Part shown: piece after piece, positions 3,445 through 49,680 of the stretch
How the letters are laid out: each line of letters starts with the position of its first letter
Numbering within the stretch: the stretch's first letter is position 1
Assembly: GCA_025829515.1 (NCBI GenBank)
Contig: GCA_025829515.1_4865.1
Reading direction: 5' to 3' (one strand)
Length of the DNA stretch: 64,000 nt
Source of the DNA: a phage
Translations under genes and position numbers: made by a program
The notes under the pieces: model-generated
The model's input: only the letters and a program-made list of their open reading frames with translations
The model's database searches: none
Told to the model about the DNA's origin: nothing

Positions 3445-4305
3445 ATGTACAGCATTACTGATTTCATCAAAAGTTCAGATTTCCCCCTACCTCCCGACCA
3501 CGAAGTATTGGCTAGCGATCCGTTAACCGATGCGGCCATTGTCCAGCTGGACCGCGACAAACGTCGTACTTACGTCGTGTTGGTCGAAGGGCAGAGCTAC
3601 GGCCTGTCTTCTTACGACCTGGAGCAGCAGGAGCGTTTCCTCGATGAAAACCGCAAAACGTCAATGTATAGCGCTATCTCGCGTGCGCTGTGCAAGGTAA
3701 TGGCAACCGTTACAGACAGCAAAAAGCGTATCGCTGTGTTACAGGGTATCAATGCACTAACGACCAAAATCCAACAACTTGAAGGTTTCCATTGCCCGCG
3801 ATTGGAAGCCGCACAGAAGGATGCTAAGGGCGATGAGGCCATGGCACTGTTTGAAGGCAATACTGTCTTTGCAACAGCTGAAGCTTGTTATCTCACCTAT
3901 CCAACTTTTAACTATACGCCAATCAGCGACACCGTAGACGGGATTAAAGTAGAGAACGTCGTGCAATGGGGTCGTGCAAATCTCAAGTTTGTGATGTCCC
4001 ATGAAGAAGAAAATCAAGATGGCCTTGGGCAGAAGATTCAACGTTGGTTCACGGCGCGTTTGGACGCCGACTGGGAAGCGCATGTTAACGCAGAGCTTCG
4101 TAAATTTCACGCGGTAGTCGCATTGTTAAAAGAAGACGCTCCCGCCCCGAAACAATCGAAGGCACCAGTGGTTGGCTGGACGTGTTCCGGCTGTAACCGC
4201 AACCATGTCGCTACAGTACCGAGAACTCATCGCTACACTTCGCAGACGATGAACATTGCTTGCCCGGCTTGCGGTAAGATCAACGAAGTTGATTATAAAC
4301 CGTAG
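3445..4305 (+). CDS. hypothetical protein with C-terminal zinc-ribbon-like CxxC...CxxC (286 aa)
   Basis: C-terminus CSGCNRNH...CPACGKINEV; coupled to upstream gene. Confidence 0.7.
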   Translation: MYSITDFIKSSDFPLPPDHEVLASDPLTDAAIVQLDRDKRRTYVVLVEGQSYGLSSYDLEQQERFLDENRKTSMYSAISRALCKVMATVTDSKKRIAVLQGINALTTKIQQLEGFHCPRLEAAQKDAKGDEAMALFEGNTVFATAEACYLTYPTFNYTPISDTVDGIKVENVVQWGRANLKFVMSHEEENQDGLGQKIQRWFTARLDADWEAHVNAELRKFHAVVALLKEDAPAPKQSKAPVVGWTCSGCNRNHVATVPRTHRYTSQTMNIACPACGKINEVDYKP

Positions 4306-4312
4306 TAGTACC

Positions 4313-4351
4313 CCCTCTTACCTTCGGGTAAGAGGGTTTTATATTTATTTT
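4313..4351 (+). terminator. rho-independent terminator (UUCG tetraloop)
   Basis: ccctcttacc-ttcg-ggtaagaggg plus ttttatatttatttt; hairpin identical to the one at 30800-30823. A second hairpin gctctctcc-cgaa-ggagagagc follows at 4372-4393. Confidence 0.8.
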
Positions 4352-4419
4352 CCGAAAAGAAAATAAAAGGCGCTCTCTCCCGAAGGAGAGAGCTTATTCA
4401 CATCCACTTAGAGGTTAAC

Positions 4420-4566
4420 ATGAATACCTTTATACAACAACTGCGTCAGCAACAGCTGAAACAAGTCGCTTTTCAACAACGTCTGCAAGAGGTTAGCCGC
4501 CAACCGCAGACTTCCACCCGTACCATTAAAGGACTAGGAGGTGACATCATCTTCAATAAGAAGTAA
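4420..4566 (+). CDS. small Gln-rich protein, paralog 1 (48 aa)
   Basis: Not in track (<60 aa). GAGG 5 nt before ATG; same length and about 40% identity to 4679-4825 with shared C-terminal IKGLGG(D/E)I motif; own terminator. Confidence 0.55.
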   Translation: MNTFIQQLRQQQLKQVAFQQRLQEVSRQPQTSTRTIKGLGGDIIFNKK

Positions 4567-4575
4567 CACTAACCA

Positions 4576-4597
4576 GGGGTGCTCGAACACCCCTTTT
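4576..4597 (+). terminator. terminator hairpin
   Basis: ggggtg-ctcgaa-cacccc followed by tttt. Confidence 0.6.
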
Positions 4598-4678
4598 AAC
4601 TCCCGTGACAGTATATCAGTGCATTGTGTACCACCACAGCGCAGCGATATATTAACAACCTGCCTAAGGAGGCACTAC

Positions 4679-4825
4679 ATGGAACAACTACGTTCGCAAA
4701 TACTTAACCATTACGTTAAGCAAACCCAATTCAACCAACGTGTACAACAGTTGACTGCGCCCAAGCAGAACACTGTTCGTCGTATCAAGGGTTTAGGAGG
4801 TGAAATACTACTAAACAAAAGTTAA
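4679..4825 (+). CDS. small Gln-rich protein, paralog 2 (48 aa)
   Basis: AAGGAGG 6 nt before ATG; the track ORF 4541-4825 is a read-through extension across the terminator. Synonymous third-position differences relative to paralog 1 (att/atc, aaa/aag, gga/ggt). Confidence 0.6.
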   Translation: MEQLRSQILNHYVKQTQFNQRVQQLTAPKQNTVRRIKGLGGEILLNKS

Positions 4826-4838
4826 CATGAAATAACTC

Positions 4839-4866
4839 TTACCCGAGTGTTCCAGCACTCGGGTAA
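4839..4866 (+). terminator. hairpin, probable terminator
   Basis: 11 bp stem ttacccgagtg/cactcgggtaa; T-run lies about 27 nt downstream (4894-4901), so efficiency is uncertain. Confidence 0.45.
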
Positions 4867-4957
4867 TTCCATGCATATAAATAGTTCGTCGTATTTTTTT
4901 TGATCTTGGCAGGACGCATAAACTGCCCGTAGGGGAGCCTAAGCTCCCCAGTGTTCG

Positions 4958-6520
4958 TTAGAACAAATCATCACCCATTCCACCGGTGAAGAAGTTGATA
5001 GACGACGCTGTTACGGTTTCTTCTTTATCACAATCCCAAGGCAGGATGCCAACATCCTGGAAAGGTATCACTGTGTAGTGATAAGATTCTTTAGTATCGA
5101 TAATGGTGCGGTGCTTACCGCGTTGAACTTCTAAGAAGCTATGGCCGTTGACCACACGCTTGTTAAAATACATTTCACCATCGGCCTCGTTATCAAGGCT
5201 CGAACAACTATCGTAAAGACCACGACCAGGTAAGTTCTTACAGAAACCTACCGGGTCTAACGCTTTTAAGCGCTTACCTTCTGGGGAAATCTGGTGTGGG
5301 GCAATTAAGAACCCACGGTTGCGTACCACTTGAATGTTACGAGCAATACGATAAATTTCTTTGATATCACTCCCGGCAATGCCGTTGCCGTGTCCTGCTT
5401 TGCTGATTGTGCCTAAGTAGTCTGCGCGAATGCCAACAACATGATAACCGCGACGACGTAAGTCGAGAATAAGGTCGTTGATGTAGTGCACTTTAAAATC
5501 GGAGTTGGTGTGCTTTTGGAAAACGTAGTCCCAACCGTTTGCGCGAATCTTACCACAGAGGTAATCAGACATTGCTGTTGTGTGTGCTAACTTCTCTTCA
5601 GCGGTCGCATCTTGGGCAATGGTCATCTGTGGAACTTGTCCTTCAAAATGACCGTACAGTGCTTGATAGCCGTAAGCTAAGTTAACGTCGAGTTCGTTTT
5701 CTAAACTCAAGTCAAGAATAATTGGTTGCAGTGTGCCCTTCACATCCGCCATTACTTTCTCAGGCGTGTTGAAGATAGGAATCGACAAGCTCAGTAAGAG
5801 ACTGAACAAAGACTTACAGTTAAAAGGTAACGCCGGCATTAGCCACAGTTCTTCGGTAATCCCTTTGTTACAACCGAGCATTTGGTTAATGGCTTTCCAG
5901 CCCGTCTGCAAACCATTACCTGCTGCTTTCTTGTTAATCGAGTCGAACACTTTAACAAACGGAGCACGATTATCCGTAACCAGCTCACCAACCAGTGATG
6001 GAATCTTATTATGAGAGCGTTCACCGAACGTAGATAGCGCCTCTTTGAGTTCGAGCACTGCGGTGTTCAGATCAACACGTGTCTCAGTTCCATTCAATGC
6101 TCCGAACGCGCGACCCATTTTTGTTTTGAGTTCGACGCTCTGTAAACATTGACGTAATTGGAAATAATATTGAGACAGTTGTCGATTAAGATGCTCGGTA
6201 CGTTTGTCTTCTTCCTCGGGCAAATCGTCTTCGAGGAATTTGGTAATCGTATCGTATAGAGGACGTACTTGAGTGGTGGCCAGCTTCAAGCGCTTCATAA
6301 CGCTCGCGTGGTCGTATTCCATGCCGCCGTCTATGATAGATGTGATAATGTCCTTGATCTCGATGAGTGCAAAGCGCTCTTCGCCATCTTCCGCATATTC
6401 CGGAAGCTTGATCTGCATCAGAACTTTTCTTATGACATCATGATCCTTGCTAGGGTCCGTCAGCATAGATTCTGTATACAGTGCGGCTAAGGCGGTTATC
6501 AACATCATTTTACTATTCAT
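4958..6520 (-). CDS. hypothetical protein (520 aa), hydrophobic N-terminus
   Basis: Long - strand ORF; AAGGA 6 nt before ATG on - strand; N-terminus MNSKMMLITALAALYTESMLT is signal-peptide-like; hairpin 4932-4949 at 3' end. Confidence 0.75.
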   Translation of the reverse strand: MNSKMMLITALAALYTESMLTDPSKDHDVIRKVLMQIKLPEYAEDGEERFALIEIKDIITSIIDGGMEYDHASVMKRLKLATTQVRPLYDTITKFLEDDLPEEEDKRTEHLNRQLSQYYFQLRQCLQSVELKTKMGRAFGALNGTETRVDLNTAVLELKEALSTFGERSHNKIPSLVGELVTDNRAPFVKVFDSINKKAAGNGLQTGWKAINQMLGCNKGITEELWLMPALPFNCKSLFSLLLSLSIPIFNTPEKVMADVKGTLQPIILDLSLENELDVNLAYGYQALYGHFEGQVPQMTIAQDATAEEKLAHTTAMSDYLCGKIRANGWDYVFQKHTNSDFKVHYINDLILDLRRRGYHVVGIRADYLGTISKAGHGNGIAGSDIKEIYRIARNIQVVRNRGFLIAPHQISPEGKRLKALDPVGFCKNLPGRGLYDSCSSLDNEADGEMYFNKRVVNGHSFLEVQRGKHRTIIDTKESYHYTVIPFQDVGILPWDCDKEETVTASSINFFTGGMGDDLF

Positions 6521-30880: not shown

Positions 30881-30908
30881 TTTCAGATATATATTACCTT
30901 AGTGAGAG
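30881..30908 (+). promoter_or_regulatory. conserved promoter-like motif, copy 2
   Basis: TTTCAGATATATATTACCTTAGTGAGAG; same downstream leader (aatcgactattaatctaaaggagtatt) as copy 1. Confidence 0.55.
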
Positions 30909-37480: not shown

Positions 37481-37510
37481 TTTTCAGATAGATGTTATTT
37501 TACTGAACCT
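37481..37510 (+). promoter_or_regulatory. promoter-like motif variant (TTTTCAGATAGATGTTATTTTACTGAACC)
   Basis: Shares TTTCAGATAGATGTTAT-N-TGAACC with the copy at 45886; lies just upstream of the 37535 gene. Confidence 0.4.
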
Positions 37511-45845: not shown

Positions 45846-45888
45846 TACCAGCTATCCTTCGGGGTGGCTGGTACGCTTTATTTTATTT
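45846..45888 (+). terminator. rho-independent terminator
   Basis: taccagc / gctggta stem enclosing a cc-ttcg-gg mini-hairpin, then tttattttattt. Confidence 0.7.
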
Positions 45889-45913
45889 CAGATAGATGTT
45901 ATCTCAGTGAACC
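45886..45913 (+). promoter_or_regulatory. promoter-like motif variant (TTTCAGATAGATGTTATCTCAGTGAACC)
   Basis: Matches 37481 variant; overlaps the terminator T-run; upstream of 45968 gene. Confidence 0.4.
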
Positions 45914-49651: not shown

Positions 49652-49680
49652 TTTTCAGATATATATTACTTAGGTGAGAG
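49652..49680 (+). promoter_or_regulatory. conserved promoter-like motif, copy 3
   Basis: TTTTCAGATATATATTACTTAGGTGAGAG; leader ctaatcgaccattatcttaaggag related to copies 1 and 2. Confidence 0.55.

Follow-up and report, generated by a model that had tools for sequence, protein, structure and literature searches.

Two 48-codon genes, tandem paralogs, beside the replicative helicase gene of an SPN3US-like Salmonella jumbo phage

RESULTS

Two small ORFs with deposited counterparts

The window analyzed, a stretch of 64,000 nucleotides of phage DNA (contig GCA_025829515.1_4865.1), contains two ORFs of equal length on its plus strand, ORF1 and ORF2 (Table 1). ORF1 was 94% identical to SPN3US gp71 (AEP83904.1) and ORF2 was 98% identical to gp72 (AEP83905.1), at the same locus in each case. 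Similarly, both matched the phrog_18219 profile HMM (PHROGs v4) with residues 1 to 48 on positions 1 to 48 of 48 (E values of 5e-26 and 4.8e-26, respectively). They are thus the same genes as those of SPN3US and phrog_18219, with no structural difference, and their rediscovery in this SPN3US-like giant Salmonella phage is correct but ordinary. The deposited annotation (SPN3US_0071/0072 and SPLA3_PHROGS00079/00080) names all of them "hypothetical protein," and the database label of phrog_18219 is "unknown function." None of the searchable papers named SPN3US gp71 or gp72, the supplements of three SPN3US papers, searched by gp name and accession, did not list them, and no description of the paralogy, of chimeric single-copy forms, or of the cassette structure was found in the searchable papers.

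The program-made ORF list showed a gap at this locus, as the first-pass annotation had remarked: ORF1 falls below its default cutoff of 60 amino acids and was missed, and ORF2 appeared only as the tail of a 94-amino-acid GTG-started ORF (4541..4825). The deposited annotation had overlooked neither gene.

The same first-pass annotation had described the ORFs as tandem paralogs of 48 amino acids with about 40% identity, in agreement with our comparison (19/48 residues, or 40%, ungapped; 47% with one four-residue gap; composition-adjusted BLASTP E value of 6e-12). This similarity is far beyond chance, and Gln-richness is not its cause. ORF1 and ORF2 are tandem paralogs whose flanking structure was duplicated too, the leader and the GTG-N6-CAC hairpin having been duplicated together with the ORF at a period of 259 nt. 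The central region of ORF1 has diverged and its ancestral C terminus, DIIFNKK, has been retained; ORF2 is the copy nearest the single gene of the SPAsTU-type Seoulviruses (77% amino acid identity).

Table 1. Features at the ORF1-ORF2 locus, in positions of the window
Feature	Position	Strand	Details
Hairpin H1, UUCG loop, T-rich tail	4313..4336	+	-18.2 kcal/mol, z -4.1
Hairpin H3, directly 5' of ORF1 untranslated region	4372..4393		-17 kcal/mol, z -3.8
ORF1 5' leader	4394..4419	+	Motif TTATTCACA + Shine-Dalgarno; similar sequences at the same place in relatives
ORF1 Shine-Dalgarno AGAGG	4410-4414	+	5 nt before ATG
ORF1	4420..4566	+	48 aa, reads MNTFIQQLRQQQLKQVAFQQRLQEVSRQPQTSTRTIKGLGGDIIFNKK; SPN3US gp71 homologue, phrog_18219
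TAGGAGGTGA in ORF1	4535..4544	+	Codons L39-D42 of the KGLGGD motif
ORF1 3' hairpin	4575..4594		AGGGGTG-CTCGAA-CACCCCT; -12.1 kcal/mol, z -3.8
ORF2 5' leader	4654..4678	+	Diverged copy of ORF1 leader
ORF2 Shine-Dalgarno TAAGGAGG, strong	4665-4672	+	6 nt before ATG
ORF2	4679..4825	+	48 aa, reads MEQLRSQILNHYVKQTQFNQRVQQLTAPKQNTVRRIKGLGGEILLNKS; SPN3US gp72 homologue, phrog_18219
TAGGAGGTGA in ORF2	4794..4803	+	Same 10 nt; recombination partner of 4535-4544
ORF2 3' hairpin	4839..4866		11-12-bp perfect palindrome, GTG-TTCCAG-CAC top; -19.6 kcal/mol, z -7.2
Conserved intergenic element, right cassette boundary	4892..4949		T8 run (4894-4901), GGCAGGACGCATAAACTGCC, hairpin GGGGAGCCTAAGCTCCCC

Hairpins and promoter sequences around the ORFs

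The cassette forms a terminator-bounded island between the end of the upstream operon and the 3' end of a convergent replicative helicase gene. On its left side, H1 is the intrinsic terminator of the operon of gp66-gp70 homologues and separates the small genes from it. H1 was present in all genera, with differing stem sequences (not formally counted). With its T-rich tail on the minus strand, H3 resembles a terminator of leftward transcription, a stem-loop at the 5' end of the ORF1 mRNA, or both. An H3 hairpin also precedes the single-copy gene in Seoulvirus, Machinavirus, and Wellingtonvirus, again with differing stems (not formally counted). On the right side, the conserved intergenic element adjoins the stop codon of the DnaB-like helicase gene (4958-6520, minus strand) and retains about 90% identity even in Erskinevirus, whose phages have no small gene.

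Each ORF had been credited with its own Shine-Dalgarno sequence and terminator. Both Shine-Dalgarno sequences are good, and each ORF does form a unit with its Shine-Dalgarno sequence and a 3' hairpin; "terminator" was, for its part, overstated, because the U-tracts on the coding strand are weak (ORF1) or missing (ORF2). An intrinsic terminator was defined as a G+C-rich hairpin plus a run of 5 or more U directly after the stem; on the coding strand both ORFs had such a hairpin and neither had such a tract. The ORF1 hairpin is followed on the plus strand by TTTTAAC, with only 4 T, and the ORF2 hairpin by TTCCATGC, with no U-tract, the T8 run beginning 28 nt later at 4894. A consensus terminator scanner scored both 3' hairpins on the minus strand only. 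The stem top of the ORF1 hairpin, GTG-N6-CAC, is family-wide, and in the hairpin of ORF2 both sides had changed across the homologues in 7 of the 10 stem pairs. These elements are conserved hairpins, and as intrinsic terminators they are putative.

No sigma-70 promoter was found upstream of ORF1 or ORF2. A conserved AT-rich 17-mer, TTTCAGATATATATTAC, which we infer to be a putative early promoter of the virion RNA polymerase, was likewise absent upstream of both; it occurs in the window at 2377, 30881, and 49653, with two variants elsewhere, and near the ORFs only a degenerate GATATATTAAC was seen, at 4646-4656. Several other candidate signals were rejected. The phiKZ-type TATATTAC motif was not enriched in the window by itself, and the longer 17-mer that was enriched does not precede the ORFs; neither TTATTCACA nor GTG-N6-CAC was enriched as a window-wide signal; and the AT-rich spacer between H1 and H3, considered as a repeated promoter, had no second occurrence.

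Evidence for translation and selection

A total of 18 syntenic gene copies from three genera (Seoulvirus, Machinavirus, and Wellingtonvirus) were compared, and an ORF of 47 to 49 codons was intact in all of them. The remaining five frames were interrupted by stop codons in all 18 copies, except for one minus frame in two Machinavirus-type copies. Among these copies the mean pairwise divergence was 0.34, 0.23, and 0.53 at codon positions 1, 2, and 3, respectively (3>1>2); pS exceeded pN in every informative pair, with omega values of 0.2 to 0.5. Differences in length among the homologues were confined to the linker and kept the frame. The codons of the KGLGG motif varied synonymously (GGA/GGT/GGC, CTA/TTA, and GGA/GGG). 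The first-pass annotation had claimed that the differences between the two paralogs are often synonymous, pointing to selection on the protein, and had held that loss of the frames in related phages would tell against it; a Nei-Gojobori comparison of ORF1 with ORF2 gave a pS of 0.77 versus a pN of 0.41, in concordance with the claim, and the frames were kept in every relative examined. Residue 5 of ORF1 is Ile rather than Met, which excludes an alternative internal start at codon 5. It is therefore well supported, on comparative sequence grounds, that ORF1 and ORF2 are genuine, separately translated protein-coding genes under purifying selection.

Two further candidates at the locus were set aside. 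The in-frame TAGGAGGTGA, considered as a conserved functional Shine-Dalgarno or pause element, was rejected as the main constraint, since other genera have TAGGGGGTGA, the neighboring codons vary synonymously, and there is no usably spaced start codon. A minus-strand ORF of 26 amino acids (4839-4919) is not conserved, because a difference in the length of the A-run cuts its counterpart in pEa_SNUABM_29 to only 9 codons.

Family distribution and protein features

The family comprised 33 clusters in a set of 5.8 billion proteins, every one of them from jumbo-phage contigs of about 240 kb, and it is a lineage-specific orphan. Only family members and three repeat proteins (P0034-P0036) were returned when this set was searched by a word index and 1.84 billion cluster representatives were scanned in full with a HMMER profile; the repeat proteins had matched through Q-rich or GG-containing repeats. 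Searches of Pfam and NCBIfam, including KH and other nucleic-acid-binding domains, gave no match above noise, and a PDB profile search gave no relative. PADLOC gave zero matches; its models describe defense and not anti-defense proteins, so this result says little on an anti-defense role. When PDB and BFVD were searched for folds like that of the AF2 model, no relative outside the family emerged, the sole near-significant match (E value of 9e-3) being a 48-amino-acid protein 48% identical to ORF1 and evidently a family member.

The protein has a mass of 5.6 kDa, a pI of about 11 to 12 (10.4 to 12.0 in all 22 members analyzed), and a net charge of +4 to +9. The prediction places an amphipathic helix with a hydrophobic seam in heptad spacing at the N terminus, joined by a flexible linker that contains Pro to a short GG-turn beta-hairpin. 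In the AF2 model (whole-model pTM of 0.33), helix 2-25 (pLDDT of ∼83) is followed by a disordered stretch and by strands 35-38 and 41-44, this C-terminal beta-hairpin being of low confidence (pLDDT of ∼56 to 59). With residue 1 at position a of the heptad register, mean hydropathy was +1.74 at the a/d positions versus -2.21 elsewhere, and the hydrophobic moment reached its maximum at 102.9 degrees; the hydrophobic a/d periodicity, which served as our indicator of a coiled coil, extended over at least three heptads. Residues Q20, R21, G38, L39, G40, G41, I43, and K47 were invariant.

Duplication, collapse, and synteny

Synteny of the small gene with the DnaB-like helicase gene and the major capsid gene held in phage records and in metagenome contigs. 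The number of copies at the locus was two in the SPN3US branch and one in the other Seoulviruses, Machinavirus, and Wellingtonvirus; Stratton (Erskinevirus) has kept the helicase gene, and the small gene is absent. The genes of phage 1252 and SEGD1 showed a clean switch from copy 1 to copy 2 at TAGGAGGTGA. As read from the sequences, the SPN3US branch of Seoulvirus acquired its second copy by tandem duplication of a unit of about 259 bp (a short leader with its Shine-Dalgarno sequence, a 48-codon ORF, and a hairpin). In SEGD1/1252-type phages, recombination between the two copies of the 10-nt TAGGAGGTGA, which encodes the invariant KGLGG motif, has reduced the pair to a single in-frame chimera. 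The occurrence of zero, one, two, or chimeric copies among relatives indicates that the gene is accessory and that there is at least partial redundancy between the two copies.

DISCUSSION

Proposed role and its alternatives

Our preferred reading, advanced tentatively and with somewhat less than even confidence, is that gp71 and gp72 are dispensable, non-virion, dimerizing binders of a polyanionic target. The helix would mediate dimerization, yielding homodimers in phages with one copy and perhaps a gp71/gp72 heterodimer in the present phage, and the invariant Q20-R21 together with the hairpin flanked by K37 and K47 would contact a polyanion of the infected cell, most probably nucleic acid. 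Dimerization and nucleic acid binding are suggested by just two properties, the heptad pattern and the charge, and for a basic peptide the ribosome or an acidic protein would be an equally plausible target. A narrower version, which we regard as rather improbable, would make the basic coiled-coil heterodimer (homodimer in single-copy phages) a clade-specific nucleic-acid-binding regulator of the phiKZ-related jumbo phages. Such a regulator might bind the invariant GUG-N6-CAC hairpin top found after every family member and so autoregulate or stabilize its own mRNA, or, during takeover, it might bind RNA or DNA of the host.

Another role that is possible, if unlikely, and that follows the first-pass annotation in its suggestion of a host-factor inhibitor, is that of a host-takeover or anti-defense factor, which would use its amphipathic helix and beta-hairpin to bind a host protein (protease, division, polymerase, or defense) and so block it. 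Many phage proteins of this kind have fewer than 70 amino acids and no recognizable homologues, and the accessory distribution of the family, absent from Erskinevirus, single-copy in most genera, and duplicated in the SPN3US branch, is in accordance with it. However, neither similarity to a known inhibitor or defense-related family nor a structural analogue was found, and so high a pI is less usual among the best-known small inhibitors, acidic DNA mimics in many cases. It could also be argued that the ORFs are incidental and that conservation acts on elements of RNA or DNA, that is, hairpins or an antisense or 3'-untranslated-region RNA of the helicase transcript, given that the island is rich in conserved palindromic hairpins and that the minus-strand T-tail of H3 raises the prospect of leftward transcripts crossing the ORFs in antisense. 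This explanation is scarcely credible, and codon statistics have largely refuted it: divergence followed the order 3>1>2 with pS above pN, changes in length preserved the frame, the invariant peptide motif was written in synonymous codons, and the sole frame open in all 18 gene copies was that of the ORF. In addition, no Rfam family was matched; the only hits were far below threshold, namely, a miRNA-like match on the H1-H3 palindromes.

The genomic neighborhood brings in two other roles. Small basic proteins can be DNA-associated head proteins, and the presence of the major capsid gene about 2.2 kb downstream, the strong Shine-Dalgarno sequence of ORF2, and the organization of each ORF as its own unit would suit a minor virion protein, whether one that cements or decorates the capsid or a basic one packaged inside it. 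We consider this quite improbable, since Erskinevirus shares the helicase and major-capsid neighborhood yet lacks the gene and since copy number differs among near-identical phages. Moreover, the spectral counts of the SPN3US virion list gp64, gp74, and gp75, and gp71 and gp72 are missing (Table S4 in PMC5105663). That absence carries little weight, because gel-based mass spectrometry can miss a protein of 5.6 kDa; the smallest protein in the gel-based table is of 10.5 kDa (PMC5105663). The small gene adjoins the 3' end of the helicase gene in every genus that carries it, which would be in agreement with an accessory factor (loader or regulator) of the DnaB-like helicase. We hold this role to be very improbable: the two genes are convergent and hence not cotranscribed, and Stratton has the helicase without the small gene. 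The upstream neighbors vary between genera, so adjacency to the helicase gene may reflect only an intergenic site tolerant of insertions.

Likeness to known systems

Morons are autonomous accessory gene cassettes of tailed (lambdoid) phages with their own transcription signals. Like them, the cassette described here is a short accessory unit between two conserved genes, with hairpins or terminators on both sides, and it is present or absent between related phages with its neighbors undisturbed. Unlike morons, it shows no sign of horizontal acquisition, because its homologues are confined to this phage clade; no promoter was found for it, and the phage is a lytic phiKZ-like jumbo phage. Studied members of the phiKZ-like phages use RNA polymerases of their own (PMC5312081).

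At the protein level, gp71 and gp72 resemble lambda CIII, lambda Kil, and T7 Gp2 in having about 50 amino acids, a dominant amphipathic helix, and homologues only in a narrow phage group. These three are small phage host-takeover peptides. In contrast to them, gp71 and gp72 are far more basic and carry a conserved C-terminal KGLGG[DE]I motif, predicted to form a beta-hairpin, and there is no similarity in sequence or fold. The stretch I-K-G-L-G-G-D-I superficially resembles the I-G-x-x-G-x-x-I of the KH-domain GXXG loop, and the charge would suit nucleic acid. However, the predicted context is a beta-hairpin and not helix-loop-helix, the following Ile is spaced differently, and there is no Pfam KH match; the KH likeness is a resemblance only.

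Significance

The immediate impact of these results is small, because two annotated hypothetical genes have been correctly rediscovered. The locus offers a clean test case, a very small family of ORFans whose translation is supported unusually well by sequence comparison. It also provides a natural series, in which jumbo phages that are near-identical in other respects carry no copy, one copy, two copies, or a chimera. It is also a convenient target for functional work on small proteins, genetics and proteomics being already available for SPN3US. If gp71 and gp72 were a clade-specific nucleic-acid-binding or host-takeover factor, they would add one more entry to the largely uncharacterized accessory genes of jumbo phages.

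Identity of the gene pair and of its source

ORF1 and ORF2 encode 48 residues each, and the observation of a tandem paralogous pair, made in the first-pass annotation, was correct. The two products showed 40% identity without gaps and 47% when one gap was allowed (E = 6e-12, composition adjusted). Each ATG is preceded by the Shine-Dalgarno (SD) sequence that had been reported for it, AGAGG at 5 nt for ORF1 and TAAGGAGG at 6 nt for ORF2. As had also been pointed out, the ORF track shows ORF2 merely as the tail of a GTG-started 94-aa ORF (4541-4825) and misses ORF1, which falls below the default length cutoff. Both genes were already known, having been deposited as hypothetical proteins in SPN3US (SPN3US_0071 and SPN3US_0072, gp71 and gp72) and SPLA3 (SPLA3_PHROGS00079 and 00080). 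They matched the phrog_18219 profile (48 positions; function unknown) end to end (E ∼5e-26) and are plain members of that family.

At positions 4300-4950 of the window, identity was 100% with Salmonella phage SPLA3 and 97.9% with SPN3US; the two phages belong to the genus Seoulvirus and have genomes of ∼240 kb each. Seoulviruses are phiKZ-related jumbo phages with their own multisubunit RNA polymerases (PMC5312081). Beyond the small-gene region, no deposited genome was identical to the window, and the best match of positions 39001-64000 was SPLA1a (98.2%), which argues for an unlisted or mosaic SPN3US-like phage as the source. From these alignments, the window is to be taken as an SPN3US-like Seoulvirus and not strictly as SPLA3, whose annotation coordinates drift from it past ∼9.5 kb.

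Layout and distribution of the locus

Features of the intergenic island and occurrences of the 17-mer TTTCAGATATATATTAC in the window
Feature	Position	Remarks
Stop codon of gp70 homologue	gene 3445-4305	left edge of island
H1 hairpin with T-tail	4313-4336	canonical rightward terminator
AT-rich palindromic spacer	4337-4371	between H1 and H3
H3 hairpin	4372-4393	T-rich tail on minus strand
ORF1 leader with SD		26 nt
ORF1 and its hairpin	4420-4566 (ORF)	plus strand; hairpin behind
Inter-ORF spacer		112 nt; ends in diverged leader copy and stronger SD
ORF2 and its hairpin	4679-4825 (ORF)	plus strand; hairpin behind
T8 run and 58-nt conserved element	4892-4949	right side, before helicase stop codon
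TTTCAGATATATATTAC, exact	2377-2393, 30881-30897, 49653-49669	
TTTCAGATATATATTAC, variants	37482-37498, 45886-45902	

The small gene occupied the same locus everywhere examined, with the final gene of the upstream operon on one side and, on the other, the 3' end of the convergent gene for a divergent DnaB helicase; beyond the helicase gene come the gp74 homologue and the gene for the major capsid protein. This synteny was seen in Seoulvirus, Machinavirus, and Wellingtonvirus records and in metagenome and SRA contigs, and the order H1, spacer, H3, leader, ORF, and hairpin was common to all three genera, with H1 and H3 stems of differing sequence. When 5.8 billion proteins were searched with the family profile, 33 clusters resulted; apart from two ORFs miscalled in SPFM assemblies of low quality, all were of 44-49 aa, and their long contigs were of ∼240 kb. 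HMMER, run in full against 1.84 billion representatives at 50% identity, recovered only three representatives of the family, three further matches being repeat proteins and hence false positives. Searches of Pfam, NCBIfam, PADLOC, and PDB sequences, and Foldseek comparisons with PDB and BFVD, returned nothing save one family member. On these searches, the family is very narrow.

The small gene was absent from Erskinevirus phages. Directly behind its gp70 homologue, Stratton has a single hairpin, T-runs, and then the conserved element that borders on the helicase gene. In the window, this element consists of the T8 run, GGCAGGACGCATAAACTGCC, and the hairpin GGGGAGCCTAAGCTCCCC, and carries TATG on the minus strand; it was ∼90% identical in Stratton and phiEaH2, both without the small gene, and no query sequence matched its flanks in these two phages. 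In the Wellingtonvirus Erwinia phage pEa_SNUABM_11 (record 2579-2980), ∼400 nt of extra noncoding DNA, with further hairpins and no conserved ORF, separates the small gene from the helicase gene. As for the gp70 homologue itself, its N-terminal 240 residues matched phrog_10180 (function unknown), and its C-terminal ∼40 residues, with a CxxC...CxxC zinc-ribbon-like motif, weakly matched two PHROG families, one a "translational regulator" and the other Lar-like (E values of 0.002-0.17).

Evidence for coding

Homologues were found by tblastn in 43 phage records. The reading frames, on whose conservation in relatives the first-pass annotation had made its claim depend, were kept there: an intact ORF of 47-49 codons was present in all 18 gene copies compared, the remaining five frames contained stops in nearly all of them, and length differences fell in frame, within the linker. 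Mean pairwise divergence in the 18 copies was 0.34, 0.23, and 0.53 at codon positions 1, 2, and 3, respectively. The proposed excess of synonymous differences was borne out by Nei-Gojobori estimates for the paralog pair (pS of 0.77 versus pN of 0.41), and pS exceeded pN throughout, as for ORF2 versus SPAsTU (0.40 versus 0.17) and Machina versus pSal-SNUABM-04 (0.41 versus 0.11). Omega was 0.2-0.5 for pairs with unsaturated dS. The comparison showed both genes to be under purifying selection.

The Shine-Dalgarno-like tract TAGGAGGTGA, 10 nt shared by both ORFs, was rejected as the conserved object. It spells the invariant KGLGG motif in Seoulvirus, and the other genera use different codons (GGA/GGT/GGC, CTA/TTA, GGA/GGG); what is constrained is therefore the peptide and not the tract.

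Duplication and collapse of the cassette

The repeat has a period of 259 nt (4420 to 4679), and its unit spans leader, ORF, and hairpin. ORF2 was nearest to the gene that SPAsTU-type Seoulviruses carry as a single copy (aa identity of 77%), while ORF1 has a diverged center and retains the family-typical C terminus DIIFNK(K/R). Many Seoulviruses contain one gene (SEGD1, 1252, EC001, the SPFM series, SaP7, and JN03), with a query coverage of only ∼61-65%. Base-by-base comparison showed that the gene of phage 1252 follows copy 1 until TAGGAGGTGA and copy 2 onward through the downstream hairpin, and the same switch was present in SEGD1 relative to an SPLA5c-type copy 2. From this comparison, both genes are in-frame deletion chimeras made at the 10-nt identity encoding LGGD/E. 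The two chimeras carry unlike copy-2 alleles (EILLNKS versus EIILNKR) and unlike downstream sequence, which suggests two independent collapse events. By comparison among phages, the cassette has thus been duplicated and has collapsed by recombination. Since these phages tolerate having no copy, a single ancestral or chimeric copy, or two copies, the gene is accessory and its copies at least partly redundant. In its way of working, as an autonomous, hairpin-bounded accessory unit, the cassette resembles a moron.

In Escherichia phage vB_EcoM_Lh1B (∼1650-1665), NNNNN directly follows the single small gene, where copy 2 would start, and the lone copy may reflect a gap in assembly at the repeat and not the true gene content. 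The alignments of several SPFM records are also broken into many short pieces here.

Hairpins and expression

Both ORFs had been described as followed by a terminator. Stable hairpins were indeed found (-12.1 kcal/mol, z = -3.8, for ORF1; -19.6 kcal/mol, z = -7.2, for ORF2), but the coding-strand U-tract of a terminator was not: just four U follow the first stem and none the second, behind which the T8 run begins 28 nt further downstream. With a consensus terminator scanner, neither hairpin scored except on the opposite strand. Among 12 sequences of the 3' hairpin, 95% of cells were paired, 7 of the 10 stem pairs had changed on both sides, and the covariation score was 0.69, versus 0.16 for shuffles and ≤0.26 for slid controls; the three top pairs (GUG/CAC) were invariant in every copy, including those of ORF1 and ORF2. 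Arm-to-arm copying could maintain this pairing mechanically, without selection on RNA structure, because the stems form perfect palindromes in the DNA and their loops are observed to invert. In near-identical phages, the 6-nt loops at 4582-4587 and 4850-4855 are found in exact reverse-complement form: TTCCAG in the window versus CTGGAA in SPN3US, Proteus phage 7, and phage 1252, and CTCGAA versus TTCGAG in SPN3US. CTGTAA in SPAsTU versus TTACAG in pEa_SNUABM_29 is a further case. Such pairs suggest that the loop inverts recurrently, in flip-flop fashion, between perfect palindromic arms.

The 17-mer TTTCAGATATATATTAC occurred 5 times in the window (3 exact matches and 2 variants) versus 0.16 expected. 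It is intergenic, lying ∼60 nt 5' of the gp66-homologue start and elsewhere downstream of terminators, and related forms of the type AGATAGATATTAT stand before other genes. The 17-mer resembles the AT-rich virion RNA polymerase promoters of AR9 and phiKZ (PMC5312081), and by this analogy is probably the early promoter of the phage for its virion RNA polymerase. It stands at the head of the operon running up to H1 and was not found upstream of ORF1 or ORF2, where there is only a degenerate GATATATTAAC at 4646-4656, mutated in SPLA5c; a promoter scan gave no sigma-70-like promoter for either ORF. Transcription of gp71 and gp72 would proceed via read-through of H1 or from an unrecognized promoter for the nonvirion RNA polymerase. 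Together, H1 and H3 make up a pair of back-to-back terminators, and from the minus-strand tail of H3, leftward helicase transcripts may cross gp72 and gp71 antisense, ending at H3. The palindrome TGCCTAAGGAGGCA (4661-4674) holds the ORF2 SD inside a 5-bp stem and could modestly limit translation initiation.

Protein features and possible function

The 22 members analyzed were of 5.4-5.7 kDa, with a pI of 10.4-12.0, a net charge of +4 to +9, and 17-35% Gln plus Asn. AlphaFold2 with the family alignment predicted a helix at residues 2-25 (pLDDT ∼83), a disordered Pro-containing linker, and a beta-hairpin (35-38 and 41-44) around a Gly-Gly turn (pLDDT ∼56-59; whole-model pTM of 0.33). Column-averaged hydropathy was +1.74 at positions 1, 4, 8, 11, 15, 18, 22, and 25, in heptad register, and -2.21 at the rest, with the hydrophobic moment peaking at 102.9 degrees; a coiled coil or a partner-docked helix would show such a narrow hydrophobic seam. 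M1, Q20, R21, G38, L39, G40, G41, I43, and K47 were invariant, and K37 nearly so. IKGLGGDI was considered as the GXXG loop of a KH domain and rejected, since there was no domain match and the predicted secondary-structure context was different.

We tentatively propose, at somewhat under an even chance for the mechanism as a whole, a small nonvirion protein that would dimerize through the heptad helix, with the invariant Q20-R21 and the lysine-flanked C-terminal hairpin binding a polyanionic partner, most plausibly nucleic acid; a gp71/gp72 heterodimer would be possible in two-copy phages. A protein-protein role against a host factor, as first suggested, or against host defense is somewhat less likely; the small phage takeover peptides lambda CIII, lambda Kil, and T7 Gp2 share with the family size and helix-based design only. 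Most of the remaining probability is divided among virion, helicase-accessory, and noncoding readings. With regard to the last, ORF1 and ORF2 are, so far as comparative data reach, almost certainly coding. As to the virion, Table S4 of Thomas et al. (2016), which gives spectral counts of SPN3US virion proteins, includes gp64, gp74, and gp75 (PMC5105663); gp71 and gp72 are absent from it, which is weak evidence since the table is gel based and its smallest entry is of 10.5 kDa (PMC5105663). Because of this absence, the lack of the gene in Erskinevirus, and its variable copy number, a structural role is weakly disfavored.

What is most useful to carry forward is the natural series of phages with zero, one, two, or chimeric copies of the gene.
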